The notes under the pieces are model-generated. The model was not told the DNA's origin and did not search any database. It saw nothing but the letters and a program-made list of their open reading frames with translations. The translations under genes were made by a program, and so were the position numbers. Source: an uncultured Flavobacteriales bacterium (GTDB lineage Bacteria > Bacteroidota > Bacteroidia > AKYH767-A > 2013-40CM-41-45). Taken from it: a DNA stretch of 56,668 nt. The stretch lies in contig CAZAON010000436.1 of assembly GCA_964486655.1 (NCBI GenBank), forward strand, positions 1 to 56,668, given 5' to 3'. How positions within the stretch are numbered: the stretch's first letter is position 1; every line of letters starts with the position of its first letter. Positions 11,418 through 55,100 of the stretch are shown here, piece after piece.

Positions 11418-11656
11418 GAAACTGAATGTTTTTGGTGAACTGATTAGAGGGATAGAGAGATTAACTACCAAAAATAGCAAAAACCACATACTAATGAAAT
11501 CTTTTTTGGCCAGTAGGGAATAATTTATCCTGGCCTGATATAGTTCAAGTCCGAAAAGGAGATGGAATAAGGGGTTTCCCTCCTGCCACGATGACATTCG
11601 GCCAATATTTGCCAAAAAACTACCTTGGCGGCATGAACCCATTTTACAGGGGAGGA

Positions 11657-18106: not shown

Positions 18107-18539
18107 TTTCCAATATCTCAACCTTCGTTATTTCATCTCCCGCCCGAATGGCATCAATAACATCTAATCCTTCTACAACTTTACCGAAGCAGGTATGATT
18201 ACGATCGAGGTGTGCCGTGTTTTGACGGCTGTGACAAATGAAAAACTGAGAACCTCCGGTGTCACGTCCGGCATGGGCCATAGACAATACGCCTCTGTCA
18301 TGAAATTGATTGCCGCCTGTAAGTTCACACTTGATTTTATAACCCGGACCACCCGCTCCTGTACCATCGGGGCATCCACCCTGAATTACGAAACCGGGAA
18401 TGACACGATGAAACGTTAATCCGTCATAAAAACCCTTTTTGGCCAGATCTAAAAAATTCTTTACTGTGTTTGGAGCGTCCTTGTCATAGAACTCTACCTT
18501 CATATCACCTTTTTCTGTGTGAATAATTGCTTTTGACAT
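18099..18539 (-). CDS. peptidylprolyl isomerase, cyclophilin type
   Basis: 146 aa with [19 protein letters not shown] and GSQFFI motifs. Confidence 0.9.
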
Positions 18540-24525: not shown

Positions 24526-24709
24526 GAGTTTTTTCAATTTTAGTTTTAACGGGATTTTTTCATGACAGCCTCCCCTTTTCGTACTTTTTAAATTCACTTT
24601 CCCGCATATCCTGACCAGCAAAGAAAATTAGGATTTTCCCCGAAATCCGCTACCTTGCATGCCCTGTAGCCCTCTCTCTGTCAATCATATACTTCACGTA
24701 AATCCAGTT

Positions 24710-34253: not shown

Positions 34254-34317
34254 CTGGAATATTGGAATCCTGGAATAATGGAATCCTGGAATGTTGGAAT
34301 GTCGCAATGTCGCAATC
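34254..34317 (+). repeat. 8 tandem 8-mers NTGGAATN / TCGCAATN
   Basis: Units are ctggaata ttggaatc ctggaata atggaatc ctggaatg ttggaatg tcgcaatg tcgcaatc. It lies between convergent genes. Confidence 0.95.
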
Positions 34318-36928
34318 ACCTAATCAACGTAACACTCCCCACGTACTCAAACACCCTTCCGGTTATATCTTCCAAATTAACCTTATACACATATGTGTCC
34401 GATATCGCGTTTTCACCTTTCCAGGCTTTAAACAAATCGTTCGAAGTAAACACTTCTTCTCCCCAACGATTGAAAATTGACATCTTATATTTTCCGATAC
34501 CAATTCCGATCCCTTTAAAACTATCATTTACTCCGTCTCCATTCGGAGTAAATGCATTCGGAACATTAAAAACAAAATCCAGTCCGATATAAATATAATC
34601 CGAAGTCTTGCTTGAACATCCGTTATTATCCATTACATACAGATCGACTCTGAAATATCCCGTATCGGTATAGACATGATAACCATACCGACTTTGAGAC
34701 TCTTCATTATCACCAAAATCCCATTTCCAGTTTTTTGCATTTGAAGTGTAATCGAGATAATTAATTTTAGAGTCTTCCAAAAATGCGACTTTAGGATTCA
34801 AATTAAACTGAATTTCCGGTAATGCGAAAACAGAAATACTCTGACTAACGGAATTGGAACAATGAGTGCCATTGTCCATGAAGCTGTATGTAATGGTATG
34901 TGTACCCGCTGTCGCGCTTGACGGATCGAATCTGTTATTATGCACTCCGGTTCCTGAATAAATTCCTCCGGCCGGCAAGCCTCCCTCAAGCAAAAACGGA
35001 TCCCCGTCAATACAGATGTCGGATGGCTTGTTAAATGTCAGTTGAGGTAACGCTTTAACCGTTAGCCGGGTAATAATAACACTATCACATCCGAAAATCG
35101 ATTCGATTGTATCGCGGTACATTCCCGCTTCAGTATAAACATGTGAAAGCAGGCGATAACTTTCACCCTGACAGATACTCTGAAAATTATCGGCAACATA
35201 AACAGGCAATACTGTTAATTGTGTTGTAACGACTGAATCACATCCGTGCGATGAAACAAGCGTATCAACATAGGTTCCCTGCAAATTGTAGTGATGAGCA
35301 TTCAAAATATATGATTCACCATTGCAAATCGTAACCGGATTATTTGCATTAAATGACGCCGCATGTGCAAGCGTGGTTTGAATAATAGAATCACATCCGT
35401 TTACAGTTTGCAGCGTATCATAATAAATTCCGGGTATAAAATAAACATGCCCGTTAAAGTTGTATGATTCTCCGTTACAAATCCACTGAGGGTTGTTCCG
35501 AATGTATGAGTTTAAAACCGTCAACTGAGTGATGACTACCGAATCACATCCGAAATTGGTGACTAATGTATCCGAATAATTTCCACTTACCATGTAGTTA
35601 TGTCCATTGAAAGAATACACCTCGCCGTTACAAATAGATTGAACACTAACTGAAACCGGTGAGGGATGTAATGTTTGAATGTTTACGGTATCCCTTGCCT
35701 GGCATCCGACGGAATCGGTAATTGTAATAATATATTGCCCTGCCGTTAAGCCTGAAGCTGTTGAAATTAATTGAGGCGGACTGGTATTCCATTCGTATGA
35801 AATGCTGCCATAACCTCCACTCACACTTGTATATGCATTACCGTCATTTCCACCATCGCAATACACGTCGCTGTGAGAGGTAATTACAACTTCCGGATTG
35901 TTAGAAATAACAGTATCACCCGAAAGCTGACATTGATTCCCCAGCGAATACATTGCTGTGTAATATCCATCACCTAAATTATTTGAAGACACCTGTAATA
36001 TTGAATCGGTCTGTCCCGAAATTGCAATTCCGTTTTTAAACCACTGCCACGCTCCGCCCATAGTATCGGTATGAGAATTCAGTACAACATTGTTCAGGCA
36101 GGGAATTCCCGACTGATCAACATTCAGTTGAGCAAATGCGGAAGTCGTATTTAATACAAGGTTGTCAAAATAAAAATAAGGAGAACATCCCAGGTTATTA
36201 TTATAGGAAGCAGGCAAGGCGCAAGGCGCGCCGAGTATTATGGCGTTCACATTAAATGTCGGAGTAAAGGTTATAGTTAACAATCCCCACTGAGAGGCCG
36301 GAGTGTAAGTTGCCTTGCCCATAATTCTCCATGCAGGTGCTGCAGGACAGGCTGTTCCGGCAAACGGCAGATTCGCGCAACTTGTACTTCCGAAAATTGT
36401 AACGTCAACCGGACCATAAAAAATATTTCCATTGTTACATATTCCACCCTGGCCGTCAACCGGAGTAGAAGCAATACTAAACTGAATAGTATAAGAAGTT
36501 CCGGCTTGCATTGGCTGAAGTAAACAAGAGCCAATATATTCCTGCCAGTTAGGTTGAAATATACATCCTACAATTGCGTCGCCGTCAGGAAAATTATTCA
36601 GTCCGGCTGCAGCAACGGCACCACCAACATATCCGCCCGGACAATGACTCATGTAATCAGTCGTTGCAAAAGAAGCCTGCATCCAACCTGCAGCACAATT
36701 CATCTGACTGTAGGTAAAGGGGCAACAATTACTTTGTTCGAAAGAAGGGTTTGGTATATAAGAATGCAATACAGTAGATCCGTGCAGACCGTTACATCTG
36801 CAATCCGTTGTATCGTTAAGATCTATCAAACCATCATTATCATCATCTATACCATTCGTACAGATTTCCTGAGCATGAATCTGAAAAGAAAATAACAAAA
36901 GAAAGAAGAGAAGATTTACTTTCTTCAT
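34316..36928 (-). CDS. large surface protein with four ~50-aa Cys-containing repeats, PKD-like domain and T9SS type B CTD
   Basis: Signal peptide MKKVNLLFFLLLFSFQIHAQ. It has four copies of ICNGE.Y.FNGH.Y...G.Y.DTL....GCDS...T.LTV. The C-terminus is AFTPNGDGVNDSF...TYVYKV. Confidence 0.85.
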   Translation of the reverse strand: MKKVNLLFFLLLFSFQIHAQEICTNGIDDDNDGLIDLNDTTDCRCNGLHGSTVLHSYIPNPSFEQSNCCPFTYSQMNCAAGWMQASFATTDYMSHCPGGYVGGAVAAAGLNNFPDGDAIVGCIFQPNWQEYIGSCLLQPMQAGTSYTIQFSIASTPVDGQGGICNNGNIFYGPVDVTIFGSTSCANLPFAGTACPAAPAWRIMGKATYTPASQWGLLTITFTPTFNVNAIILGAPCALPASYNNNLGCSPYFYFDNLVLNTTSAFAQLNVDQSGIPCLNNVVLNSHTDTMGGAWQWFKNGIAISGQTDSILQVSSNNLGDGYYTAMYSLGNQCQLSGDTVISNNPEVVITSHSDVYCDGGNDGNAYTSVSGGYGSISYEWNTSPPQLISTASGLTAGQYIITITDSVGCQARDTVNIQTLHPSPVSVSVQSICNGEVYSFNGHNYMVSGNYSDTLVTNFGCDSVVITQLTVLNSYIRNNPQWICNGESYNFNGHVYFIPGIYYDTLQTVNGCDSIIQTTLAHAASFNANNPVTICNGESYILNAHHYNLQGTYVDTLVSSHGCDSVVTTQLTVLPVYVADNFQSICQGESYRLLSHVYTEAGMYRDTIESIFGCDSVIITRLTVKALPQLTFNKPSDICIDGDPFLLEGGLPAGGIYSGTGVHNNRFDPSSATAGTHTITYSFMDNGTHCSNSVSQSISVFALPEIQFNLNPKVAFLEDSKINYLDYTSNAKNWKWDFGDNEESQSRYGYHVYTDTGYFRVDLYVMDNNGCSSKTSDYIYIGLDFVFNVPNAFTPNGDGVNDSFKGIGIGIGKYKMSIFNRWGEEVFTSNDLFKAWKGENAISDTYVYKVNLEDITGRVFEYVGSVTLIR

Positions 36929-40580: not shown

Positions 40581-40707
40581 ATAGTTTATTTTTAGAATTT
40601 GATTAAATGAGAACGGTAACGTAATTCATATAAAACTAATGAAAGGTAAATTTATTTTACTCATTCACAATGTTATTTTAAATAAAATAGTCTATTTTCA
40701 CATTGTC

Positions 40708-41901
40708 ATGAAAAACATTTTTTTTCATTTACTGATAGTCGCTCTCTTCTCCTGTAACAATGAGCCGAATGACCCTTCGAAAAAATTCGATTTCTTCGAA
40801 CAAAAGGATGTATTAGTAAAGGCTCCGGGCAAAAAAGAAATGATTTTAAGATCGGAGCGGCCCTATAATCTTGAAACACCTCAAAAATATTTTCTATTCG
40901 ATTATACTCCGAATGATGTATTCTTCGTCAGATGGCATCACTCTCAATTGCCGGGTGAAATAAATCCGGATACCTTCAGGTTGCGTATTCATGGTCATGT
41001 TAAAAATCCACTTTCACTTTCTTTAAGCGATCTTAAAACAAAATTCCGACCCGTAACTATTCCGGCTTTAGCCATATGTGCGGGAAATTCCCGCCAGCAG
41101 TTTGATCCGCGTGTAGCCGGAGTACAATGGAAAAACGGCGCGATGGGAAACGCGAAATGGACGGGTGTCCCGCTTCGCGATATACTGGATGCGGCTGGAA
41201 TTAAAGAAGGAACAATAGATATTGCATTTAATGGTATGGATGATCCTCCGCTTCCCGCAACTCCTGATTTTATTAAATCATTGCCGGTGAATCGGGCCAT
41301 GGATGGCGAAGTTTTAGTTGCCTACGAAATGAATGGTGAAAAAATTCCACTGCTGAATGGTTATCCTTTAAAATTAGTCGTCCCCGGCTGGTATGCGACA
41401 TATTGGATCGGAATGTTAAATGAAATCAGAGTGGATAAGGATACATTCGACGGATTCTGGATGAAGAAAGCATATTTTATTGGAAAAGGCCGGATGAATG
41501 GAAATGAAAAACCGGATTCATTAGCTCAGCAAACCGAACCAATAAATCAAATTGCATTGCGGTCCTTATTTGTTAGTCCGCGCAGCGACGAAAAAATTCC
41601 CGTGAATGAAAAAACAGAAATTCAGGGATTGGCTTTCGATGGAGGAAATGGCATTTCGAAAGTTGAATTGTCGTTAGACAGCGGAAAAACATGGTTTGTA
41701 ACCAAACTGGATCCTGAAATTGGAAAATACTCATGGCGAAGATGGAGATATGAATGGCTTCCGGAAAAAACCGGAATGTTTTATGTATATGTAAAAGCGA
41801 CGAGTAATTCGGGAGAAACACAACCGCTTCAACACTGGAACAGGAGTGGTTATGCAAAAAATGAATTGGAAAAACTTGAACTATTTGTATCGGAAAAATG
41901 A
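40708..41901 (+). CDS. molybdopterin-dependent oxidoreductase, sulfite-oxidase family (SorA-like) lipoprotein
   Basis: ATG 40708 gives MKNIFFHLLIVALFSC. ALAICAGNSRQQ matches the Mo-ligand Cys motif CAGNRR. NGYPLKLVVPGWY is present, followed by a C-terminal Ig-like dimerisation domain. Confidence 0.8.
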   Translation: MKNIFFHLLIVALFSCNNEPNDPSKKFDFFEQKDVLVKAPGKKEMILRSERPYNLETPQKYFLFDYTPNDVFFVRWHHSQLPGEINPDTFRLRIHGHVKNPLSLSLSDLKTKFRPVTIPALAICAGNSRQQFDPRVAGVQWKNGAMGNAKWTGVPLRDILDAAGIKEGTIDIAFNGMDDPPLPATPDFIKSLPVNRAMDGEVLVAYEMNGEKIPLLNGYPLKLVVPGWYATYWIGMLNEIRVDKDTFDGFWMKKAYFIGKGRMNGNEKPDSLAQQTEPINQIALRSLFVSPRSDEKIPVNEKTEIQGLAFDGGNGISKVELSLDSGKTWFVTKLDPEIGKYSWRRWRYEWLPEKTGMFYVYVKATSNSGETQPLQHWNRSGYAKNELEKLELFVSEK

Positions 41902-42224
41902 AACACATAATCTATCTCTTTATCATTCTTTTTTCGGTCTCATGCGCTAATGAAGAGAGTAATTTAAAAAATACTGAGTCGGTTGCCGATCTGCCCGATG
42001 CATCTTCCTATCCCGTTCAACTGGATATGTCAAAATACGCGACGGAGTTTATTGCCAACTGTCAGACCTGTCATACGCCGCGATATATTGAAATGCAGCC
42101 AAATTTTCCCAGAAAAACATGGGCTAAAATCGTTGACAAGATGATTCACGTCTATGGGGCTCCGATAGATTCGGTCACAGCAACCCGTATTGTCGATTAT
42201 CTTGTTTGGGTAAAATCGAATTGA
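41898..42224 (+). CDS. c-type cytochrome lipoprotein (SorB-like partner)
   Basis: It has an ATGA start/stop overlap with the Mo enzyme gene. The signal peptide ends FSVSC. It has a single CQTCH haem motif. Confidence 0.8.
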   Translation: MKHIIYLFIILFSVSCANEESNLKNTESVADLPDASSYPVQLDMSKYATEFIANCQTCHTPRYIEMQPNFPRKTWAKIVDKMIHVYGAPIDSVTATRIVDYLVWVKSN

Positions 42225-42330
42225 AAATTTTTTCATTAACTTTATTAAAGTGATTCTCGAAAAGAAGACACTTTAATTTGCTGTGGAATTACTCGTAAAT
42301 AAAATATAATTTAACCTTAAATCTACTGCC

Positions 42331-42873
42331 ATGAAAACCAGCGTCAGGATTATTTCGGTTTTGCTTGTTACATTTTTATTCGCCTGTTCGAATAAAGAAA
42401 CATCGAATAACTCCGAACAACAAAGTTCTCCGTCACCTTCCGATTTAATGAAGGAAGAACCGCCTTACGATGCAACGAAAATTGATCCGAATGCTAAAGT
42501 AACGGAGATCATTCTTCATGCTCAGGGAAATTCAATGACTGAGATGAAATTTGATCTCGCTGAAATTAATGTTCCCGAAGGAAGTACGGTTAAAATTAAA
42601 TTTATTAATGAGGCAACGGATGCTGCTATGATTCACAACTTTCTTCTGATCGAAGAAGGAAGCGCCGACAAAGTAGCTGCGGCCGGAATAACTGCCGGTC
42701 CGGACAAAAATTATATCCCCGATTTAAAAGAAGTGCTTTACGGGACAAAGGTGGTAAATCCAAAAGAAGAAATTGAATTCACCATACCGGCTCCGGCAAA
42801 AGGAACCTATGATTTCATTTGCACATATCCCGGTCATTATAAAATGATGCATGGGAAATTCATTGTTTCATAA
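42331..42873 (+). CDS. cupredoxin (azurin/auracyanin-like blue copper) lipoprotein
   Basis: The signal peptide ends LFACS. AMIHNFLL supplies a His ligand in an azurin-like HN context. CTYPGHYKMMHGKF supplies the Cys-His-Met ligands. Confidence 0.8.
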   Translation: MKTSVRIISVLLVTFLFACSNKETSNNSEQQSSPSPSDLMKEEPPYDATKIDPNAKVTEIILHAQGNSMTEMKFDLAEINVPEGSTVKIKFINEATDAAMIHNFLLIEEGSADKVAAAGITAGPDKNYIPDLKEVLYGTKVVNPKEEIEFTIPAPAKGTYDFICTYPGHYKMMHGKFIVS

Positions 42874-43686: not shown

Positions 43687-43804
43687 TTTGCAAGAAATAA
43701 TTTCATCTGCTTTTGAATAATCGGTTCTGCGATTGCGTTATTGTTTAATCAATAAGAACCAAAATGTATCGCAAACTTTTTTTTCTGTTACTTTTTCGAT
43801 TGCC

Positions 43805-44008
43805 ATGGGTTTCATGGAGTCGGCAATTGTAATTTACCTGCGGGAATTATATTATCCCGACGGTTTCAATTTTCCCCTTAACATAATTCCACCGAGAAAC
43901 GCCGCAGTTGAAATTTTACGCGAGGCAGCCACTCTCATTATGCTGCTTACCATCGGTTTAATTGCGAAAAGAAGAGTCAAAGCTTCAGTTCCCTTATCAG
44001 TTAACTGA
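43805..44008 (+). pseudogene. possible 3'-truncated membrane-protein gene
   Basis: MGFMESAIVIYLRELYYPDGFNFPL...REAATLIMLLTIGLIA reads like the first two helices of a membrane protein. It then stops 12 nt inside the convergent exosortase gene. An out-of-frame ATG at 43764 precedes a T8 run (43777-43784). Confidence 0.3.
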
Positions 44009-45355
44009 AGTTAAACCAATCAATGGCGTTACTGACTTTACCATAAAGATATTTTTCTTCAACAATTCTTCTGTCAACTTAGTAAGTTCTTCTTTCGAAG
44101 CGGCATTCACATTTATCAAACAATACCTTCCCCCCTTCATCGCATCTATTCTCCATTCAAACTGGCTGATGGTTTTCTTATCTCCCTTATCGAACCACCA
44201 GGCCGAATAGATCTTTTCATTTCCTTTTAATATTAACCCCAAATAAATTTCTGTTCCGTTTATTATTTCCGTATGGTATTGCTTGAACGCGTAACCACTA
44301 CCACTCCAGCAGACAAGAGGATTGTGCTCAGCATTATAAAAATTCATTGGCTTAACATAAATAAGACCCTCTTCATTTTTGAAAGTTATAACTCCGCTCT
44401 CTAATCGTTCCTTTGTAAATCCGTCGATCATGCATTGACGGTCCGGAGTTTTGGCCGGAATTGATTTATCGACAAAAACAAATGAGTATAGAAGTAGTCC
44501 AATTAATGGCAGCGGAAGAAAATCAGAACTAAATTTGTGAGGCGCGACTGTTTCTGATTGATTGTATTTCCCGGCCTTCCTGTAAAACAAATATATACTC
44601 ACATAAACAGGCACTATTACATAAAGCAACAGACAAACCAGTCCGGTCACATCGTGCATGATCGTGTCCGGTAATATATTAAACTGTACCAATGCGATTA
44701 TGCGGAATAAATTACAAATGACATTACAAATAAATGTGATTGAAATAATGATAAGACAATTAATCGCCGATAGTTTCTTGCCGGTTCTTCTTTGAAAATG
44801 CGAAACGATAAAAAGCATGATAATAAATGAAATCACAATCATGGAAAGTCCGACGCATGCGGGATCAACTGAAAAATCAGTTCCGTTAAATCGAATGATA
44901 TTGCCGGATGCTGTAACCTCATTTCCCGCAATCGAAAGGACTTTAGCGGAAATCTCACTCAGGAAAAGCCTGATCGGGAATCCGAATGTCATCGCAATAA
45001 ATTTAAATATCGGGGAAATAAAAAACAGGAGCCAGACAAACGTCCAGCTCGTTTTTCCGATTAATGAATCAATGATAAAAAGAACGCTGAATATAAATCC
45101 GAGAAAAAGTATCGATCTGACTCCGGTAAAAATCGATAATGACACCAGAATTACGGCAGGAATCAGATATCTGTTGCTCTTACTTTTCCTGTCAATTATT
45201 ATTATAAAAGGTGACAACAACAATGCTATCAAAACATTTGAGTCTGAAATAAAATAATCAGAGAAAGCAAAAAATGCAAAGACCATGAATGCGGATAAAT
45301 ACAGTCCGGCAATAATTGGCTTCCTCTGATTAAATAATGCAAATACCTGTTGCAT
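43997..45355 (-). CDS. exosortase-family protein with fused EpsI-like C-terminal domain (XrtN-like)
   Basis: ATG 45355 (MQQVFALFNQRKPIIAG) lies 1 nt after the upstream stop. It has ~8 TM segments with the ordered motifs DPACVGLS, NLFRIIAL and HDVTGL (exosortase Cys/Arg/His). The C-terminal soluble domain carries HNPLVCWSGSGY (EpsI-type). Confidence 0.8.
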   Translation of the reverse strand: MQQVFALFNQRKPIIAGLYLSAFMVFAFFAFSDYFISDSNVLIALLLSPFIIIIDRKSKSNRYLIPAVILVSLSIFTGVRSILFLGFIFSVLFIIDSLIGKTSWTFVWLLFFISPIFKFIAMTFGFPIRLFLSEISAKVLSIAGNEVTASGNIIRFNGTDFSVDPACVGLSMIVISFIIMLFIVSHFQRRTGKKLSAINCLIIISITFICNVICNLFRIIALVQFNILPDTIMHDVTGLVCLLLYVIVPVYVSIYLFYRKAGKYNQSETVAPHKFSSDFLPLPLIGLLLYSFVFVDKSIPAKTPDRQCMIDGFTKERLESGVITFKNEEGLIYVKPMNFYNAEHNPLVCWSGSGYAFKQYHTEIINGTEIYLGLILKGNEKIYSAWWFDKGDKKTISQFEWRIDAMKGGRYCLINVNAASKEELTKLTEELLKKNIFMVKSVTPLIGLTSVN

Positions 45356-45356
45356 G

Positions 45357-47864
45357 TTAATTTTTGATTGGATTAAAGTAAATGACAAGAACAATTAACA
45401 ATGCGAAAATGGCGAGAGCAATTTCATGCGGTTCAGGCACTGATCCGGAACCCTTGATGCTTGCATTCTGAAGACTGTTCTTGCTTTGCTCAATTCCGAA
45501 CCTGTCATAATCTGCCTGTGTTTCCAAAACAATCAGGCTTGAAACCGGACTAACGATCCATGCTTTTACAGCTTCATCAATAATACCATTTCCGATTTTC
45601 TCTGGCGTGAAAAAATCTTTGCCGATTTGTTTCATTACATGGTTGTAAGAAAATAACCTCATCAGGTGGTCGCTACCCTTTCCCTTTTGAAGGGTGCTGT
45701 CTTCCCTGATCATTATTGAGGAATGATCAATTACGATTGTACTTTCATTTTCCTGAGACTTTATGAATTCTTTTTTGTTAATTTTTTCGAGTAATTCAGT
45801 CAGGCTTCCGTTGACATAATTAATTGCACGAACTTCTTTGAGCGCTTTTAAATACGGACAAGTTTCCTCGCTCAGATTATAGACTCTGATGTTTCTGTCA
45901 GTTGAAAAATATTCCTTTAGCTTTTTACCGAAAACAGATTTTTCAAGATCGTCCAACTGCGGTGAAATTGAATTACATTTTGTGATTACCAGTACTCCGC
46001 TATTATCCAGTTTATAAAACGGAAATAAACTGAAATTTAAATTCGAGTAATTCTCAAAAAGCTGCATGTTGTTTTGTTCATTCACTGCAACCGGACCGTC
46101 AGACATGACAAATACATTTTTTCCGTTCAACGCTTTTCTGATTTCCTGAAATTCACTTTCAGTCCAGTTGCTGTTTATATCCAGGTAAACAGCTGCAGGG
46201 TCAAAGAACTCGTTTTGCTTAGTATACTCATTCACATAATAATTTCTTCCGTCGAATGAAAATGCTTCTGTTGAGAGTGGTAATGCGTCGAATTCAATTT
46301 CCCAGTAAGGCGAATACGATTCCTGTTTCGACATTCTCATTTCCGATCCTGAAAATCCGGCCGGTATTTTAGAATTTTGAACCGGCTTGTCAAACTGAAC
46401 CTGCGCGGATTCTGTGCAGTGAATTGCGGGAGGGCCTTCGAAATAAATGTTCTCATAGATAAGCCGGTTTCCGATTTTTTGAAGTGGTGATGTTACTCCG
46501 ATTTTAAATCGCCTGTTTTCTTTGGGTGTACAAGGGAAAATTCTGGCCGAGACGGTATTGCCTTCCTGCCAGTGAATAACAGATGGATCTCTGGCCTCTC
46601 TTCCGACAATTGTTTTATAGGCAGTATCGGCTTTGCTTTTCGAAGTTAATATTCCTTTTTCTTCGACACCGTCTATCCAGAGTGAAAGCGATGTTACTAC
46701 GCTTCCTTCGGGAAGATGAAATGTATAAATAGCTTCTTCCTGGCTTCTGAATCTCTCGGGCGAACTGGTATTTTGAATGCTTATGGTCTTTTCTGTATAT
46801 GCCAATCTGTTTTGAGGAAAAATTCTAACGTTGCTGATTACATTTGTCGTTCTGAGATTTTCGCCGCTCCATAATCTTTCCTGCGCCTGATGTCTGACGT
46901 CGTATCTGGATTTTAATATTTTTATTTTTTCGTCGAGAGAAAGATCGGGTTCGGTTGAAAAAAGACAGGCAGTGAGAACTAATGGATCGTGTTGCCTCGC
47001 GTTTTCGAAATTCATTTGTGAAAGATTTGTCTGAAAAGGCTCGAAGTGCTTCGAAGGGATTGTATAAATCAAATCAGTTTTAAGAATCTTTTCAAACATT
47101 ATATCATCATCCATGTGCTGACTTATTCTGATCCAGTTTGGAATTTCAGATTCATTCATTATTGAATTGTTCAACAGGTAATTAATTTCATTTGTCTTAT
47201 GCGTCCATTTTACCACGAAAACAACAAGAATTACGAGCGGAATGGTCATGCCTGCGATTGCAGGGACTAACATTTCCTTATAATTGTGTATCGACCGGTA
47301 CATGAGTACACATATCGTGATCAACATAAACAAGGGAACAAAAACATGCAATGAAATACCAATAATAAAAGAACCGACAAGTCCGATTAGAAAAAATGGC
47401 ATGAGGTATATGGCGAAGTAAGTAATGAGCGGTAAAATAAAGGCAATGCAAAAGCTCATAATTCCTCTAATAAACTTTGGGAACTCGCTGATAAATGGAA
47501 ATGCCAGCAGCATAATACACTGGATGATCAGGAGAACGGAAACCCAGTCGGCCATTTTTTCGAATATGCAGACTTCGCGGTTTAAAGCGAATGCGGAAAT
47601 GGTCATTAAAACACAAAGCGGAATTACATACGTTATTCTTGTCCTGAAGAACGGCCATTTAAATCCGACAAAGCCTTTAATTAAAACCATTGAAAAATAA
47701 AACAGAGTCATACCATAATTGATAAAAAACAATCCGAAGTAATTACTGCTTGTCGCAACGGAATTGTTTCCTGATATGAGATAGACAAAGAGAGATAATA
47801 AAATAAGAATGATTCCGGTTAAGTAAACCGGATCTGTTAAGCGAATTGATTTTTCATTTTCCAT
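45357..47864 (-). CDS. multi-TM VIT-domain protein with PEP-CTERM-like C-terminal sorting signal (putative exosortase substrate)
   Basis: 835 aa. The N-terminal ~230 aa is hydrophobic and polytopic. The VIT-like core reads FHLPEGSVVTSLSLWIDGVEEKG...DPSVIHWQEGNTVSARIFPC. The tail is GSGSVPEPHEIALAIFALLIVLVIYFNPIKN. Confidence 0.8.
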   Translation of the reverse strand: MENEKSIRLTDPVYLTGIILILLSLFVYLISGNNSVATSSNYFGLFFINYGMTLFYFSMVLIKGFVGFKWPFFRTRITYVIPLCVLMTISAFALNREVCIFEKMADWVSVLLIIQCIMLLAFPFISEFPKFIRGIMSFCIAFILPLITYFAIYLMPFFLIGLVGSFIIGISLHVFVPLFMLITICVLMYRSIHNYKEMLVPAIAGMTIPLVILVVFVVKWTHKTNEINYLLNNSIMNESEIPNWIRISQHMDDDIMFEKILKTDLIYTIPSKHFEPFQTNLSQMNFENARQHDPLVLTACLFSTEPDLSLDEKIKILKSRYDVRHQAQERLWSGENLRTTNVISNVRIFPQNRLAYTEKTISIQNTSSPERFRSQEEAIYTFHLPEGSVVTSLSLWIDGVEEKGILTSKSKADTAYKTIVGREARDPSVIHWQEGNTVSARIFPCTPKENRRFKIGVTSPLQKIGNRLIYENIYFEGPPAIHCTESAQVQFDKPVQNSKIPAGFSGSEMRMSKQESYSPYWEIEFDALPLSTEAFSFDGRNYYVNEYTKQNEFFDPAAVYLDINSNWTESEFQEIRKALNGKNVFVMSDGPVAVNEQNNMQLFENYSNLNFSLFPFYKLDNSGVLVITKCNSISPQLDDLEKSVFGKKLKEYFSTDRNIRVYNLSEETCPYLKALKEVRAINYVNGSLTELLEKINKKEFIKSQENESTIVIDHSSIMIREDSTLQKGKGSDHLMRLFSYNHVMKQIGKDFFTPEKIGNGIIDEAVKAWIVSPVSSLIVLETQADYDRFGIEQSKNSLQNASIKGSGSVPEPHEIALAIFALLIVLVIYFNPIKN

Positions 47865-47930: not shown

Positions 47931-48227
47931 TTACCGCTTTTTAATGAGTTCTTCGAGAGCGTCTAAGTGCTGGACGAATGCCTTTCTTCCTGAAGCGGTA
48001 ACTTTATAAACGGTATTCGGTTTTTTACCCATAAATTTCTTTTCAACTTTCACATAGCCGGCCTTTTCAAGTGCACTGATGTGACTTGCAAGATTACCGT
48101 CGCTGAGATCGAGCATTTCTTTCAGCGTATTGAAATCAATCTGTTCATTTACCATTAAGGTAGACATGATTCCAAGCCTAACGCGGTTTTCGAATGCTTT
48201 ATTGAGTCTGTCAATAAAATCCTTCAT
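47931..48227 (-). CDS. small winged-helix transcriptional regulator (HTH_34/PadR-like size)
   Basis: 98 aa. RLGIMSTLMVNEQIDFNTLKEMLDLSDGNLASHISALEKAGYVKVEKKF...YKVTASGRKAF shows a wHTH pattern. Confidence 0.75.
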   Translation of the reverse strand: MKDFIDRLNKAFENRVRLGIMSTLMVNEQIDFNTLKEMLDLSDGNLASHISALEKAGYVKVEKKFMGKKPNTVYKVTASGRKAFVQHLDALEELIKKR

Positions 48228-48229
48228 GA

Positions 48230-48862
48230 TCAGCTTTCATATTTATAATACATTGAAATCCCGTACACGATATGAAGTACTCCAAAGCCGATAGTCCAGA
48301 AAATAAATCCATAACCCACAAAGAACGAAGCGATAATTCCCAAAATGATTTCACAAATTCCAAGATAGCGGATATCATTATAGGTGTATTTACTTCCGTT
48401 CAATAATGCGATGCCGTAAAATACAAGTGTAGCCGGAGCAACCAACCCGATAATACCATGATAAAGCAGAGCCAGGCAAAAAAGTCCGCCGGCAATAAGC
48501 GGCAACATCAAATTAATCACCAATCGTTTCGCAACCGCATCCCAGATTTTCAATCCGTTCTTACGGGCCTTCCTTGTAGTGAAGTACACACCGGCAGAAA
48601 GCGATAATACCAGGACAATGATTGCAACAAAAATCAACAAGGCAATTTCCGTAAATGGATGCGACACTCCGAGTAAATTATCGGCATACCGCGAATAACT
48701 TCTGAGAGCAGGCGAGTAATAAGCAAAGGCCGCTCCGCATAAGGCAAATATTCCGGCGAATACACCTGACAATCCGCTCAGTGAAATAAACCGCGATGAT
48801 CTTTCCATCATCGTGCGTATTTCAGAAATGTCCTTTAGATATTCCGAGTCTTTAGGTTCCAT
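48230..48862 (-). CDS. membrane protein (5-6 TM), co-transcribed with wHTH regulator
   Basis: The first ATG at 48862 gives MEPKDSEYLKDISEIRTMMERSSRF. The stop is 2 nt before the regulator ATG. Confidence 0.7.
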   Translation of the reverse strand: MEPKDSEYLKDISEIRTMMERSSRFISLSGLSGVFAGIFALCGAAFAYYSPALRSYSRYADNLLGVSHPFTEIALLIFVAIIVLVLSLSAGVYFTTRKARKNGLKIWDAVAKRLVINLMLPLIAGGLFCLALLYHGIIGLVAPATLVFYGIALLNGSKYTYNDIRYLGICEIILGIIASFFVGYGFIFWTIGFGVLHIVYGISMYYKYES

Positions 48863-48863
48863 A

Positions 48864-48886
48864 GAAAGTACTTTGAAGTACAAAGT
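48864..48886 (-). promoter_or_regulatory. second copy of the 23-bp operator/promoter-like motif
   Basis: gaaagtactttgaagtacaaagt lies immediately upstream of ATG 48862. Confidence 0.5.
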
Positions 48887-48960: not shown

Positions 48961-50109
48961 ATGAAGAAATTCCTCATAATACTGCTTATAATCTTTATAG
49001 GTTTAAAGATCGCTTCACTCGTTATGAATGAAGCGGAATATAAATATCCCGAGAGGGTTAATCTGGAAAAGAAAATCAATTATCTGGAACGCATAATAAC
49101 AAAGCCGCTCGATTATAAATCGGAACTTTTTCATGTACAGGATCAAAGCGGTGAATGGATGCTGTTTACTCTGAGTTTTTCGGCGTACGGATTAACGAAT
49201 GTTGCTTTGAAAGATTCGACATTCAGACCACGTGCGATAAAAATCATTGCGGAGGCAATCAACAAAGCAATGATGAAGGATGTCTATAAATTCTATTCGG
49301 ATATTGAAGAAGACTCTCTCCATCCCGTTACTTCGAATCGGTCGGTTATATACCTCGGGCATCTGAATATGATGACAGGCTGTTACAGGCTGCTGACAGA
49401 CGATGGCCGATTCAATGCTTTGAATGACAGCATTAGCGAATCTCTTTATACCTGTTTTAATCATTCGAAAACGAAGTGCCTTGAATCGTATTCACGCAGC
49501 ATTTGGATACCTGACAATACGGTGGCGCTTGCATCGCTGAAACTATATGGGGTGAAAAATAAAAAACCAGAATACGAAACGTTGTGCAAATCGTGGGTAA
49601 ATTTTGCGAAAAAAAACTTCATGGATAAAAAAACAAATCTGCTGTGCACATCGATTGATTATGACACGGGAAAAATCACAGAAGAGCCTCGTGGATCGAT
49701 GATTGGGTGGTCTATATTCTTCATCAGCTATTTCGATAAAAATTTTGCGCGGCAATTATATGAAAACTACACACATTATTTTTCCAATGACATACTGATG
49801 TTAAAACTCTTCAGAGAACGTGCAGGCATTTACACGACGGGAGAAGGAGACATTGATTCCGGTCCGCTTTTTCTGGGCTATGGAATACCTGCTACAGCCT
49901 GGGCTTTTGGAAATGCGGTTTTATTCTCGGATCTTAAAACAGCTAAGAAATTGGAGCGCGTAATTAATATAGGTAGTAATGAAATCGAAACAGTAAATGA
50001 GATTCGATATGATATTCGGTTTACGGATGTGAGTATGAGTCCGCTGAATGATGCTTTGCTGTTATACCTGGAGACGGTTTATGTATTTACCCCTGCATCT
50101 TCAGTTTAA
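48961..50109 (+). CDS. N-terminally anchored hypothetical protein
   Basis: 382 aa with an N-terminal TM helix (FLIILLIIFIGLKIASLV). I recognised no motif. Confidence 0.65.
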   Translation: MKKFLIILLIIFIGLKIASLVMNEAEYKYPERVNLEKKINYLERIITKPLDYKSELFHVQDQSGEWMLFTLSFSAYGLTNVALKDSTFRPRAIKIIAEAINKAMMKDVYKFYSDIEEDSLHPVTSNRSVIYLGHLNMMTGCYRLLTDDGRFNALNDSISESLYTCFNHSKTKCLESYSRSIWIPDNTVALASLKLYGVKNKKPEYETLCKSWVNFAKKNFMDKKTNLLCTSIDYDTGKITEEPRGSMIGWSIFFISYFDKNFARQLYENYTHYFSNDILMLKLFRERAGIYTTGEGDIDSGPLFLGYGIPATAWAFGNAVLFSDLKTAKKLERVINIGSNEIETVNEIRYDIRFTDVSMSPLNDALLLYLETVYVFTPASSV

Positions 50110-50260: not shown

Positions 50261-50330
50261 TGCATAATATTTCATACACCTACAAACTATTTTCAATAAT
50301 ATTTCGTTAAATTTGCATGATAATTCATAC
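50261..50330 (+). promoter_or_regulatory. two direct 17-mers upstream of hipB-like gene (candidate operators)
   Basis: tgcataatatttcatac (50261-50277) and tgcatgataattcatac (50314-50330) agree at 15 of 17 positions and start 53 bp apart. The second overlaps the track ORF's ATG at 50317. Confidence 0.35.
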
Positions 50331-50352
50331 GTTAATTTATAATATAGACTTT

Positions 50353-50700
50353 ATGACTGATACATCATACAATAATTGGCGTTCAATGAGTGATAAAGCC
50401 ATTGCAGTACATATTGGATCATTTATCAGGCATCACCGGCTTGAACAGAATAAAACGCAGGCGGCGCTGGCAGATGCTGCAGGCATAAGTCGTTCAACAT
50501 TGAGTTTACTGGAGCATGGTGAAACGGTAACACTTGCGACACTCATCCAGGTGTTGCGAGTGTTGGATCAATTAAACGTGATGGAAGTTTTTACAGTTCA
50601 AAAAACAGTAAGCCCATTAGTGCTTGCAAAAATCGAACAGAATAAAAGACAAAGGGCGAGAGGAAAAAACAAGAATGATTCTGAAAAAAGTGAGTGGTAA
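50353..50700 (+). CDS. hipB: XRE-family HTH antitoxin, HipB-like
   Basis: HTH motif QNKTQAALADAAGISRSTLSLLEHGE. The basic C-terminal tail ends ...SEKSEW, and E. coli HipB as I recall it also ends in ...LEW. The start could be 50317 or 50353. Confidence 0.75.
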   Translation: MTDTSYNNWRSMSDKAIAVHIGSFIRHHRLEQNKTQAALADAAGISRSTLSLLEHGETVTLATLIQVLRVLDQLNVMEVFTVQKTVSPLVLAKIEQNKRQRARGKNKNDSEKSEW

Positions 50701-50702
50701 AA

Positions 50703-52007
50703 ATGAATACGGCATTTGTAAAAATATGGGGAGTATTGGTTGGCGCCGTTGCATGGAATGAAGCAACCGGTTTTGCATCTTTCGAATATGATCCTGAATT
50801 TAAAACTTTGAATTGGGACATCGCGCCGTTGCAGATGTCAGTCAGTTCAGCGAAAAGCCGATTTGAATTTCCTTCGCTGCGAAAAAAAGCGGATCCATTG
50901 ACAGATACGTTTAAAGGTTTGCCCGGACTTTTGGCAGATGTTCTACCCGATCGTTATGGAAATGAATTAATAAATATGTGGCTGGCACAGCAGGGCCGTG
51001 CATCAGACAGCATGAATCCGGTCGAATTGCTTTGCTTCATCGGAACGAGAGGAATGGGTGCATTGGAATTTGAACCCGCTACATTTTCAGAGACCAAAAG
51101 AAATTTCACCGTCGAAATTGACAGTCTGGTCGAGACGGCAAAAAAGATTTTATCAAAAAAAGAAAACTTCGTCACCAATCTTCATAAGGATGAGGAGAAG
51201 GCAATGATGGAACTTTTACGAATAGGAACATCGGCAGGAGGCGCCAGACCGAAAGCGGTAATTGCATACAATGAAAAAACAGGAGAAGTAAAATCGGGTC
51301 AGACGCAATCGCCAAAGGGATTTGAACACTGGCTGATTAAACTGGATGGCGTTAGTGATGTGCAATTGGGAACTTCGAAAGGATATGGAAGAGTGGAGAT
51401 GGCCTATTACAATATGGCGACAGCATGCGGAATTGAAATGATGCCATCGAGGCTATTGGAAGAAAACGGCAGGGCGCACTTTATGACGAAACGTTTTGAT
51501 CGTGAAGAAGGAAATATAAAACATCACATACAAACATTTTGCGCGCTAAAACATTTCGACTACAATGCGGTGACAAGTTATAGTTACGAGCAGCTTTTTC
51601 AAACCATGCGCGAACTTAAATTAACATACCCGCAAGCTGAGCAGATGTTCCGGCGAATGGTATTCAACGTACTTGCAAAAAATTGTGATGATCACACAAA
51701 AAACTTTTCATTCCGCCTTAAAAAAAATGGCACCTGGGAATTAGCGCCGGCCTACGATATATGTCATGCATACCAGCCCGGTCACCAATGGGTTAGTCAG
51801 CATGCGTTAAGCATCAATGGCAAACGAACTGACATTACAAAAGAAGACCTGATCTTAATTGGCAATTCCATCGGGAATAAAAAATCAAAACATATTATCG
51901 AGGAAATTAATGAAGTTGTAAGCCGTTGGAAAGAATTTGCAAATGAAGTGGGTGTTATGAAAGAGTTGAGAGAAATGATTGGTGAAACGATGGTGAAACT
52001 TAAGTGA
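50703..52007 (+). CDS. hipA: HipA-family serine/threonine kinase toxin
   Basis: ATG 50703 lies 2 nt after the hipB stop. The N-terminal coupling domain reads VGAVAWNEATGFASFEYDPEF. SAGGARPKAVI is present. The catalytic loop is NCDDHTKNFSF. Confidence 0.85.
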   Translation: MNTAFVKIWGVLVGAVAWNEATGFASFEYDPEFKTLNWDIAPLQMSVSSAKSRFEFPSLRKKADPLTDTFKGLPGLLADVLPDRYGNELINMWLAQQGRASDSMNPVELLCFIGTRGMGALEFEPATFSETKRNFTVEIDSLVETAKKILSKKENFVTNLHKDEEKAMMELLRIGTSAGGARPKAVIAYNEKTGEVKSGQTQSPKGFEHWLIKLDGVSDVQLGTSKGYGRVEMAYYNMATACGIEMMPSRLLEENGRAHFMTKRFDREEGNIKHHIQTFCALKHFDYNAVTSYSYEQLFQTMRELKLTYPQAEQMFRRMVFNVLAKNCDDHTKNFSFRLKKNGTWELAPAYDICHAYQPGHQWVSQHALSINGKRTDITKEDLILIGNSIGNKKSKHIIEEINEVVSRWKEFANEVGVMKELREMIGETMVKLK

Positions 52008-52154: not shown

Positions 52155-55100
52155 TTATCTCTCAGATTTAACATCCATACCGAGCTGCGCTTTTATTTTT
52201 CGGATTTCAATTAACATGTCTTCATTAGCTTTTGCATTCTCCGATTTCAGTTTTTCGTTTTCCGCTTTGAGTGACTCTATCAGGAGTTGTTGATCCTTGA
52301 TAGCTTCAATTAAAATCGGTGTAAATTTTTCATAGCTCACCGCTTTAAATCCCTGGCTGTCGGTTTTTACTAATTCAGGAAATACAGTTTCAACTTCCTG
52401 AGCAATGACTCCTATCTGTTTATCCTTTTCAAATTTTAAGTCAGGAAACTCTTCGGCTCTAAAATCATAACTTACCCCTCTTAATTTCATCACACTTTGC
52501 AATGCATTACCAATGGATTGAATATTCTTCTTGTAACGAACATCAGAACCCGACCATGCGCCACTGGTGCAAAAAGTAGTACCATAGATAGTACAGGTAA
52601 ATGGTGCTTGTGCAAATGATGTGTTAACTCCACCAATGCTGACACCTCCTCCGCCCGGATTAAGAACCAATTGATAGGGATTTGCAAAATTGTTTACAAC
52701 CCTGTTTTGCAAATAAGACCCACCGAAAGGGAAAGTACCCATATCCAGAGCGATTGTACCTCCTGTTAAACGAAAGCCCACATTACCATCGGTTGAGCCG
52801 CTTGTTGGTATTGTATTGGTGCCCGCACTTGTAAAGAAAGTGGTTAACTTAACAGCAGGTGATGCAGTGCCGATACCTACATTGCCGATATTTGAATTGC
52901 TGATGTCATTTCCTGATGTATTCCATTGCTCAGCTATGGCAGTTGATAGCCCTGTAGCCGGATTAATTGTTACTCCAAAATTTTGTGAGCATAGCAGATT
53001 AATTACCTGCATCGTATTGCTGCCAGCATTAGCTACATAGGCATAATTACCAGAAACGACGACTGATAAAGGGCTATTTCCCGTAGCCACAGAGCTTACC
53101 ACTACAGGCACTGCCTTATTGGTTACATTAATTACCTGCAGGGTGTTGCTGATTTCACTAATCACACAGGCATAATTGCCAGATACGGCTACTGAAGGAG
53201 GGTTACCTCCCGTTGCCACAGAGCCAACCACTGTGGGAACTGCCGGGTTGGTAATGTTTATTATCTGCATGGTATTACTGGTAAAATTAGTCACAAAAGC
53301 ATAAGTGCCAGATATAGCTACTGAACGAGGATTAGCTCCCGTTGCTACTGAGCCAGCTACTGTGGGCGATGCCGGATTGCTAATATTTATTACCTGCATG
53401 GTACTGCTGTTAGTATTGGTTACATAGGCATAATTGCCCGATACGGCTATTGAAAAAGGACCGTTTCCAGTTGCTACCGAGCCTGTCACCGATGGAGATG
53501 CCGGGTTGGAAATGTTAATTACCTTCATGTTATTGTCGCCAAAATTAACCACGTATGCATAATTGCCCGATAAGGCTACAGAATTAGAATGAAATCCTGT
53601 TGACACAGAGCCTGCCACTGTTGGTGATGCCGGGTTGGTAATGTTAATTACCTGCATGGTACTGGTAGTCGTTATATAGGCAAAATTGCCCGATAAGGCT
53701 ACTGACGTAGGATTACTTCCGGTTGCAACTGAGCCTGCCACTACAGGCGCTGCCGGATTGGTAATGTTTATTACCTGCATGGTATTAGCATTAAAATTTA
53801 CCACATAAGCATAATTGCCTGCTACAGCTACTGAATTAGGATTAGTTCCCGTAGCCGCTGAGCCTACTACTGTTGGGCAGGATAAACTTGGAACTATTGC
53901 TGTGCTTAAAACATCAGTTCCGGTTAAAGTACCCCAGCTAGCCAAACCTGCTGCATCACTTTTTAATACTTTACCTGCACCCTGGGTGCCATCGGTTATT
54001 TTAATTGTACCAGCCACATCTAATTTACTGACCGGAGAGGTAGTGCCAATACCAACGTTTCCACCATTATTAAAAATATTACTTGAGTTTACTACCCACA
54101 TTGTGTCATTCCAATATGGGGTATTGCCTGCTGCAGCACCACTTGATAATAAACCCGCAGGTCCTTGTGGACCCGCTACTCCATCATTACCAGGAATACC
54201 CTGTGGACCGGTTAAACCTATTGGACCTTGAGGACCGGTTGCGCCATCATTACCTGGCATACCTTGCGGACCAGTTAATCCAATCGGACCTTGTGGACCG
54301 GTTGCGCCGTCATTTCCCGGAACACCCTGTGGTCCGGTCGCTCCATCATTTCCGGGAATACCCTGCGGACCGGTTAAACCAATCGGACCTTGCGGACCCG
54401 TTGCGCCATCATTACCCGGAACACCCTGTGGACCCGTTGCTCCGGTTAATCCTATGGGACCTTGTGGTCCGGGATCGCCTTGTGGTCCCTGTGGTCCGGT
54501 TGCTCCATCATTTCCGGTTAAACCTATCGGGCCTTGTGGTCCGGGATCACCCTGCGGTCCCTGTGGACCAACCAGACTTGCGGTAGATTGCCAACTTGCT
54601 AAACCGTTTACATCTGATGTTAAAACCTTACCTGTACCTGGTGTACCACCGGTAATTTTAACTTGTCCTGCCACTTCTAATTTAGCAGATGGCACTGTGG
54701 TCCCAATACCAACATTACCTGAATTTGCATTGCTGATATCATTTCCGGAGTTATTCCATTGTAGTGGCAATGCATTGGTTTGTCCGGTTGCAGGATTAAC
54801 CGTTATTGTATAATTAATTGGGCATACTAAAGAGATCGCAATAAGTGTATTGCTACCCTGATTTGTTACATAAGCATAATTATCCGATACCACTACTGTA
54901 TTAGGGTTGTTTCCCGTTGCCATTGAGCCTGCCATTACCGGTGAAACCGGATTGGAGATATTAATTATCTGAATTGTGTTACTTACTAAATTTGTTACAA
55001 ATGCATAATTTCCTGACAGTGATACTGACCGGGGATATGTTCCGGTTGCAATCTGCGTTTGATATACTGGTGCAGCAGGGTTGCTAATGTTGAGAACCAT

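Follow-up and report, generated by a model that had tools for sequence, protein, structure and literature searches.

Two adjacent genes on the minus strand of contig CAZAON010000436.1, derived from an uncultured Flavobacteriales bacterium, encode an exosortase and a membrane protein carrying a VIT domain (hereafter, the VIT protein), and almost certainly constitute a canonical exosortase N (XrtN) system. The whole contig of 56,668 nucleotides was analysed and is referred to as the window. We propose, with a probability of roughly 0.7, that the pair represents one intramembrane cysteine protease or transpeptidase and a single cognate target, which would be processed at its C-terminal tail as described below. 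The pair is genuine, but the system is already catalogued as curated families; since both genes fall inside these NCBIfam families, the locus adds nothing categorically new. The additions made here are the likeness of the whole ectodomain of the VIT protein to inter-alpha-inhibitor heavy chains (ITIH), a predicted doubly anchored topology, and a link to an HTH_34 module that is shared with the envelope genes CreD and DUF4153. These features turn "function unknown" into specific, testable questions on the XrtN system.

Exosortases are widespread and, to our knowledge, their chemistry has never been directly shown. The cleavage site and the acceptor would be most simply determined in a system with one enzyme and one large, well-folded substrate, and XrtN is present in culturable soil Bacteroidota (Pedobacter, Mucilaginibacter, Chitinophaga, and Dyadobacter).

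Identification of the XrtN gene pair

Both open reading frames (ORFs) were present where an initial annotation, made from the letters of the window, had placed them (Table 1). The xrtN product matched the NCBIfam model TIGR04476, "exosortase N", with 374 bits (cutoff 200), and all other Xrt subfamily models stayed far under their own cutoffs, the runner-up being XrtT with 40 bits (cutoff 250). It also matched the exosortase/archaeosortase signature TIGR04178 over residues 161-255 (26.6 bits; cutoff 23) and Pfam PF09721 (62.3 bits; threshold 25.7; E 6e-17). The initial annotation had proposed to check the exosortase assignment with hidden Markov models (HMMs), and these three models all passed. 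The VIT protein matched TIGR04477, "XrtN system VIT domain-containing protein", with 928 bits (cutoff 250), residues 15-829 being aligned on profile positions 2-817. The VIT domain, for which a search had likewise been suggested, was detected by PF08487 with 45.5 bits (threshold 26.5; E 1e-11). The names "exosortase N" and "XrtN system VIT domain protein", which NCBI and JGI give to the database homologues, had already been given in the initial annotation and proved to be those of the NCBIfam models matched above cutoff.

On the minus strand, the junction of the two genes reads AAT TAA c ATG. The stop codon of the VIT gene (45357-45359) and the ATG of xrtN (45353-45355) are separated by a gap of 1 nt, as had been noticed earlier, and this spacing suggests that the enzyme and its target are made together. 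An alternative, longer in-frame TTG start of xrtN at 45394 would add 13 residues. The nearest relatives showed 55% identity for XrtN and 67% for the VIT protein, and most members of each family showed 32-45%; the pair in the window is a divergent lineage within the XrtN system.

Distribution of the pair and its sorting signal

A scan of one genome per species gave 393 genomes with an XrtN relative, and the best 80 loci were examined. By record title all 80 loci belong to Bacteroidota, including Pedobacter, Mucilaginibacter, Chitinophaga, Niastella, Dyadobacter, and Cytophagales. The VIT gene was located directly upstream of xrtN on the same strand in 77 of them, mostly overlapping xrtN or separated from it by a few nucleotides. 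The remaining three loci lie at contig ends with less than 500 nt of upstream sequence; hence, all 77 informative loci are syntenic. The initial annotation had regarded a lack of synteny in relatives as an argument against a pair, and synteny was in fact kept throughout these different species. Apart from the VIT protein, an HTH_34 protein, a small membrane protein, and a 175-aa downstream ORF (21 loci), no family recurred around xrtN in 20 or more of the 80 loci.

The C-terminal tail of the VIT protein, GSGSVPEPHE followed by a hydrophobic helix and NPIKN, was found with the sequence and at the position first described (Table 1). The consensus of the family is SSGAVPEPHEW followed by a transmembrane (TM) helix and a K/R-rich end, and G807, P810, E811, P812, and E814 were invariant among 48 VIT homologues. 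An HMM was built from 76 XrtN-type tails, and a regular expression for PEP plus a helix was also run. The window tail matched the HMM with an E of 7e-9. Among the 327 stop-to-stop frames of the window, the HMM and the regular expression agreed that such a tail occurs solely on the VIT ORF, as the initial annotation had claimed. When the HMM was applied to the ORFs in about 1.2 Mb of flanking DNA of the 80 loci, the matches were VIT proteins and the second half of one split VIT gene. Unrelated proteins with PEP-CTERM-like tails, which had been named as evidence that would speak against a dedicated system, were thus absent from the window and these flanks. Within the DNA sampled, the results are consistent with one target per XrtN, as in a dedicated system.

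The split gene mentioned above is that of Mucilaginibacter sp. CAU 1740 (locus L027, 5403-7900), in which the VIT gene is broken into one ORF of 452 aa and another of 387 aa and xrtN is intact. The split is a frameshift, a sequencing error, or a pseudogene.

Membrane core and C-terminal domain of XrtN

XrtN has about nine TM helices followed by a C-terminal periplasmic domain. The three exosortase motifs pointed out in the initial annotation were located at residues 164-171 (DPACVGLS), 215-222 (NLFRIIAL), and 234-239 (HDVTGL), and a further motif, HNPLVCWSGSGY, was located at residues 344-355. Cys167, Arg218, and His234 of the three motifs fall on columns that are invariant in an alignment of 43 XrtN sequences. 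For exosortases and archaeosortases, a catalytic triad made up of these Cys, Arg, and His residues has been proposed (Haft 2023 preprint).

An AlphaFold2 (AF2) model of XrtN, with a mean predicted local distance difference test score (pLDDT) of 89 and a predicted template modelling score (pTM) of 0.86, showed a helical membrane core in which a beta hairpin at residues 147-162 runs into Cys167. Cys167, Arg218, and His234 lie in that order on successive helices (169-191, 197-224, and 232-260), and the model together with the counts of lysine and arginine (K+R) places them at the periplasmic helix ends, Arg218 being near the outer end of its helix. In the K+R counts across the family, loop 143-168, which carries Cys167, and loop 225-231, which precedes His234, were assigned to the outside, and loops 52-63, 192-196, and 261-280 to the inside. 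In the model, the cytoplasmic K/R-rich loop 261-280 is followed by a TM helix (281-296) and then by an alpha/beta domain at about 306-435. Because of this distribution of K+R among the loops, the active site and the C-terminal domain of XrtN probably face the periplasm.

In the alignment of 43 sequences, the C-terminal domain contained ten invariant residues: H344, P346, C349, W350, G352, G354, W386, W387, W401, and R402. The initial annotation had called this protein EpsI-fused, and regions homologous to EpsI are known to be fused to EpsH in other exosortases (PMC1569441). A fused domain was indeed found, but the XrtN of the window matched neither of the EpsI models (Pfam PF11984/DUF3485 and NCBIfam TIGR02914) even at E <= 10. 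PF11984/DUF3485 gave sub-threshold matches in 6 of 30 XrtN family members (13.7-16.5 bits against 26.1; best E 0.004), always co-linear, with positions 46-110 of the domain, containing the HxPxxCWxGSGY...WW stretch, aligned on profile positions 90-160. Furthermore, two long models, XrtD and XrtO, gave weak matches to the domain in their C-terminal parts (E of about 0.03). In a profile search of 1.84 billion representatives, the best 150 of 644 matches were all XrtN, and Foldseek comparison of the XrtN model with the PDB gave only weak DcrB/PsbP-like matches at this domain. Remote homology of the C-terminal domain to EpsI is likely, although the matches in favour of the "EpsI-fused" description are weak and sub-threshold.

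Topology and ectodomain of the VIT protein

In the AF2 model of the VIT protein (mean pLDDT 84), a helical membrane domain (residues 12-236) is joined by a partly disordered linker to the VIT domain, a beta sandwich; an alpha/beta region and a terminal helix at 812-830 follow. Two low-confidence segments, 276-288 and 327-333, lie between the membrane and VIT domains. The membrane domain contains the conserved motifs ISAFALNRE, YxxxYLxPxY, and GISLH; S90, N95, W107, Y149, H173, and W220 are invariant, and R96 occurs in at least 90% of the sequences. Its only homology is to the N-terminal part of MSEP-CTERM proteins, and a scan of 17 members gave no Pfam relative at E <= 10. A relationship between this membrane domain and XrtN was ruled out (hhalign probability 0.5%).

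The orientation of the VIT protein was assessed from the mean K+R of the 48 homologues, which was 2.7 for the N-terminus, 3.4 for loop 65-77, 1.1 for loop 127-133, 2.1 for loop 191-199, and 2.8 for the C-terminal end. The loops between these were acidic or uncharged, and the charges alternated cleanly when the stretch 154-190 was counted as a single membrane crossing. From these counts and the AF2 model we infer an N-terminus inside, seven spans, an ectodomain outside, and a terminal helix running from outside to inside. An outside ectodomain and an out-to-in helix represent the orientation that a PEP-type signal requires. The view of the initial annotation that cleavage at the C-terminal helix would not free a soluble protein fits this predicted topology.

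Foldseek comparison of the VIT protein with the PDB gave heavy chain 1 of the inter-alpha-inhibitor (ITIH1, 6fpy) as the best match, with an E of 2.8e-13 and about 593 aligned columns. By the length of this match, the entire ectodomain as modelled, beyond the VIT domain itself, is ITIH-like in fold. Sequence similarity to ITIH outside the VIT domain was insignificant, and no Pfam match to a vWA domain was obtained in the VIT protein. The DxSxS motif of a metal ion-dependent adhesion site (MIDAS) was absent after the VIT domain; by column composition, the equivalent strand end reads D562-x-N564-x-S/N. In fold, the ITIH1 match extends over this part of the protein. A weak match to TIGR03788 was observed in the VIT region. 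In ITIH heavy chains, the C-terminus is the point of attachment to chondroitin sulfate and to hyaluronan (PMC7170535).

Genes upstream of the pair

Upstream of the VIT gene, an HTH_34 winged-helix regulator gene and a gene for a small polytopic membrane protein, which are always paired, form a module (Table 1). The small membrane protein belongs to no Pfam or NCBIfam family and has at least 7955 homologues across Bacteroidota. The module precedes the VIT-XrtN pair in 51 of the 67 loci with sufficient upstream DNA, and in 36 of those 67 it is directly adjacent (about 50 nt). In three unrelated genomes, the module is followed by DUF4153, CreD, and a membrane protein of about 240 aa, and no XrtN pair comes after them. 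In the Pedobacter XrtN loci, CreD is located between the module and the VIT gene, and in others DUF4153 and the 240-aa protein occupy this place. The possibility that the module is an XrtN-specific component was considered and rejected, since the module occurs far more often than XrtN and, in genomes without a following XrtN pair, is located before other genes. The occurrence of the module before CreD and DUF4153 elsewhere suggests a cell-envelope role for the XrtN pair. The pair would sit in an envelope-related neighbourhood that is conserved, and it may be controlled by the same regulator; the module itself may represent an unrecognised envelope-related regulon. A scan for sigma-70 promoters and terminators around the operon was uninformative for Bacteroidota.

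At the other end of the pair, a 91-aa ORF (43733-44008, plus strand) is convergent with xrtN and overlaps its 3' end at 43997-44008. It matches only the N-terminal ~70 residues, about one third, of the ~240-aa membrane-protein family, which recurs in the same neighbourhood in loci L001, L048, L050, L081, L083, and L085. By this comparison the ORF looks like a truncated remnant of that family. Over the same DNA, XrtN has a C-terminal extension of about 12 residues, which is of low AF2 confidence and absent from relatives. The remnant and the extension together suggest a rearrangement scar.

Proposed reaction and alternative explanations

In the proposed model, the N-terminus of the VIT protein is cytoplasmic, seven N-terminal spans would cross the inner membrane, and the ectodomain of about 575 residues (VIT and vWA-like) would be located in the periplasm. 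The final helix would place VPEP at the outer face of this membrane and the short basic end in the cytoplasm. XrtN, whose Cys167, Arg218, and His234 are predicted at periplasmic helix ends and whose periplasmic domain is fused after the ninth helix, would recognise the VPEPHE-helix signal. Attack by Cys167 would then form a thioester and free the C-terminal helix. The acyl-enzyme may be resolved by water or, by analogy with archaeosortase A (ArtA) and the sortases, by a lipid or envelope glycan that supplies an amine or hydroxyl. For ArtA, Cys173 is an active-site residue, and an ethanolamine lipid has been proposed to resolve a thioester intermediate (PMC7157517). Dedicated one-to-one sorting systems have been described as a concept (Haft 2023 preprint). 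The VIT protein, doubly clamped at the outset, would remain held by its N-terminal domain, and its C-terminus would become either free or attached to another envelope component. As the N-terminal membrane domain remains, the outcome would not be secretion. By analogy with these systems, cleavage of the VIT tail by XrtN is probable, and transfer to an acceptor rather than hydrolysis is a tentative proposal to which we would give somewhat less than even odds.

If transfer does not occur, XrtN may be a plain protease that removes the C-terminal helix by hydrolysis, no acceptor being involved, so that the ectodomain is only unclamped and stays suspended from the N-terminal membrane domain, for example for activation or maturation. 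This would suit a substrate that already has a conserved polytopic N-terminal anchor and needs no new one, and a locus beside which no glycosyltransferase, exopolysaccharide (EPS), or lipid-synthesis gene is conserved in the 80 loci examined; moreover, one-step transpeptidation is unproven even for ArtA (Haft 2023 preprint). We nevertheless regard it as unlikely. The Cys/Arg/His triad resembles that of sortases, which are transpeptidases (Haft 2023 preprint), the substrates of ArtA and rhombosortase finish with lipid or ethanolamine-containing moieties (PMC7157517), and the invariant periplasmic domain fused to XrtN suggests an extra role such as acceptor binding. Another explanation is that the ectodomain is released or relocated: XrtN would pass its C-terminus to an acceptor in the outer membrane or outside the cell, and another cut, in the poorly ordered linker at about 276-333, would take off the N-terminal membrane domain, giving a surface or matrix protein comparable to hyaluronan-bound ITIH. 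The low-confidence segments of the linker, the covalent C-terminal attachment of the best structural match, ITIH, to glycosaminoglycans (PMC7170535), and the first proposal for PEP-CTERM proteins, namely that they reach the cell exterior (PMC1569441), are all consistent with it. However, neither a protease gene nor a second processing site is evident, the nearby genes encode no mechanism for crossing the outer membrane, and the invariant polar residues of the N-terminal domain suggest that it is functional and not a disposable anchor. Release of the ectodomain is thus improbable.

It is also conceivable that the tail is not cleaved but serves as a docking helix in a stable VIT-XrtN complex, the real substrates of XrtN, if any, being encoded elsewhere in the genome. 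The tight 1:1 gene coupling would also suit a stable heterodimer, and the tail is missed by the generic PEP-CTERM model. However, the Cys, Arg, and His that are invariant family-wide argue for an active enzyme, and the invariant P-E-P-x-E abutting the helix resembles the signals cut by other exosortases and archaeosortases (Haft 2023 preprint). Since the 1.2 Mb of sampled flanks also contained no other candidate tail, we consider a docking helix very improbable.

Several points weigh against processing of the VIT tail by XrtN as proposed above. AF2 draws two helices in the stretch 154-190 of the VIT protein, so that the number of spans is ambiguous; if this stretch is a hairpin crossing the membrane twice, the ectodomain would lie in the cytoplasm and the model would not hold, and we regard this as the main uncertainty. 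In the tail of the window, the nearly invariant Trp815 is replaced by Ile, which was seen in 2 of the 48 homologues (the window and its closest relative only), and one Lys stands at the cytoplasmic end against the family mean of 2.8 K+R. The initial annotation had suggested a search with PEP-CTERM models, and the generic model TIGR02595 reported no match on the VIT protein at E <= 0.01; the tail would therefore represent a form of the signal that is specific to XrtN. One target per XrtN was counted within the window and about 1.2 Mb of flanks. Sequence and profile searches found no exosortase structure in the PDB with which the active-site geometry could be compared. Experimental work on any XrtN was not found in the searchable literature, in agreement with the initial annotation; as no paper there mentions XrtN, the system is known only from curated models and annotation. 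The upstream module is far more widespread than XrtN, and hence its adjacency may mean a shared neighbourhood and not regulation.

Comparison with known systems

The pair in the window shares its gene order, the (near-)overlap of the genes, the tail motif, and the phylum with the XrtN/VIT pairs (TIGR04476 and TIGR04477) of 80 other species, and every testable hallmark of the XrtN system was found in it. It differs from these relatives in the replacement of Trp815 by Ile, in a basic cluster cut to one Lys, and in the ~12-residue extension of XrtN.

The other dedicated pair of Bacteroidota, exosortase K (XrtK) and MSEP-CTERM (TIGR04287 and TIGR04286, as the pair TIGR04286/TIGR04287), resembles the XrtN pair in that residues 15-452 of the VIT protein align to positions 146-573 of the MSEP-CTERM profile (E 2e-14). 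The score of 52.5 bits did not reach the cutoff of 150 for TIGR04286, and the two families are thus related but distinct. The XrtK model matched XrtN weakly (21 bits; cutoff 55). The signal is MSEP in that system and VPEP here, and the XrtK model has only 163 positions, whereas XrtN has a fused C-terminal domain.

ArtA of Haloferax volcanii and its PGF-CTERM substrates belong to the same superfamily, as judged from the TIGR04178 match, and share with the XrtN pair an active-site Cys and a signal motif that abuts a C-terminal TM helix. For thioester formation and the attachment of a lipid at the C-terminus, the best experimental model is ArtA (PMC7157517; Haft 2023 preprint). It differs from XrtN in serving many substrates instead of one, and its substrates are without an N-terminal polytopic anchor. 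XrtA/EpsH of Proteobacteria with separate or fused EpsI (PF09721 with PF11984/TIGR02914) shares the enzyme core, and its targets share PEP, a TM helix, and a basic end; the EpsI-fused EpsH proteins have, like XrtN, a periplasmic domain after the core (PMC1569441). Unlike XrtN, XrtA has dozens of targets and is found in EPS loci, whereas for XrtN there is one target, and EPS genes are absent from the surroundings.

ITIH1 (PDB 6fpy) and the bacterial VIT-vWA targets of sortases (TIGR03788) share the VIT domain with the XrtN target, and their C-termini are processed for covalent attachment; for ITIH1, Foldseek extends the likeness to the fold of the whole ectodomain. The enzymes that process these proteins are unrelated to XrtN, and the MIDAS-like position reads DxNxS/N in the XrtN target in contrast to DxSxS. 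As an argument for the mechanism on the XrtN target, the ITIH parallel is suggestive only. A bolder reading, which we consider rather unlikely, would make the XrtN target a counterpart of ITIH in function too: its C-terminus after VPEP would be covalently joined to an envelope glycan or lipid, which would cross-link the protein, anchored in the inner membrane, to another layer of the envelope; the pair would belong to a module-controlled envelope-integrity regulon with CreD and DUF4153; and VIT-type proteins would be the favoured cargo of sortase, XrtK, and XrtN, three unrelated dedicated enzymes, because covalent C-terminal tethering is how such proteins ancestrally act.

Other features of the window

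Table 1 Features of the XrtN locus and secreted proteins in the window.
Feature	Position	Strand	Remarks
xrtN, exosortase N	43997..45355	-	452 aa from ATG; TIGR04476, TIGR04178, PF09721
XrtN C-terminal soluble domain, possibly EpsI-like	44036..44440	-	residues ~306-440, inside XrtN model TIGR04476
XrtN catalytic core	44639..44866	-	DPAC(167)VGLS 44843-44866; NLFR(218)IIAL 44690-44713; H(234)DVTGL 44639-44656
XrtN-system VIT-domain protein, predicted single substrate	45357..47864	-	835 aa; TIGR04477, PF08487
C-terminal sorting signal	45360..45452	-	GSGSVPEPHE, 16-residue hydrophobic helix (815-830), NPIKN
VIT protein periplasmic ectodomain (predicted)	45465..46856	-	residues ~337-800; VIT, then alpha/beta vWA-like region
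VIT domain	46500-46814	-	residues 351-455; PF08487
VIT protein N-terminal polytopic membrane domain	47157..47864	-	residues 1-236; AF2 helices; predicted N-in, 7 spans
HTH_34 winged-helix regulator	47931..48227	-	98 aa; PF13601 E 1e-31; 66 nt upstream of VIT gene
Small polytopic membrane protein, always paired with HTH_34 gene	48230..48883	-	217 aa, probably 210 aa from ATG 48862
Secreted protein with type IX secretion system (T9SS) C-terminal domain	7425-11702	-	
Secreted protein with T9SS C-terminal domain	16487-18121	-	
Secreted protein with T9SS C-terminal domain	21113-24466	+	
Secreted protein with T9SS C-terminal domain	24659-26782	+	
Secreted protein with T9SS C-terminal domain	34316-36928	-	

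Five proteins of the window carry T9SS sorting domains of type A (TIGR04183) or type B (TIGR04131), which bears out the earlier statement that the other exported proteins use this route. PKD-like repeats occur in one of these large proteins, and one combines a DNase I-like region with a choice-of-anchor D domain.

Divergent from the XrtN cassette, a 382-aa protein with an N-terminal TM helix is encoded at 48961-50109 (plus strand); its only match, to linalool dehydratase/isomerase, was weak and partial (PF18566, E 1.5e-7), and it is not conserved beside XrtN in other genomes. Further along the same strand (50317-52007), a HipB-like helix-turn-helix antitoxin gene (127 aa) overlaps a kinase toxin gene of the HipA family (437 aa; PF07804 E 1e-53, PF13657). 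This pair is a type II toxin-antitoxin system and is located about 1.4 kb past position 48883, the upstream limit of the XrtN cassette.

An ORF of at least 1503 aa occupies 52155-56666 (minus strand), its listed TTG start lying 2 nt from the contig end. It contains collagen-like Gly-X-Y repeats (Lcl/Scl adhesin models, E of about 1e-38) and beta-propeller YVTN repeats. Neither rRNA nor tRNA genes nor Rfam elements were found in the window. At 40639-42873 (plus strand), three genes encode a sulfite-oxidase-like molybdopterin oxidoreductase (PF00174 and PF03404), a small CxxCH protein, and a lipoprotein-like cupredoxin (PF00127), and they may form a periplasmic electron-transfer trio.

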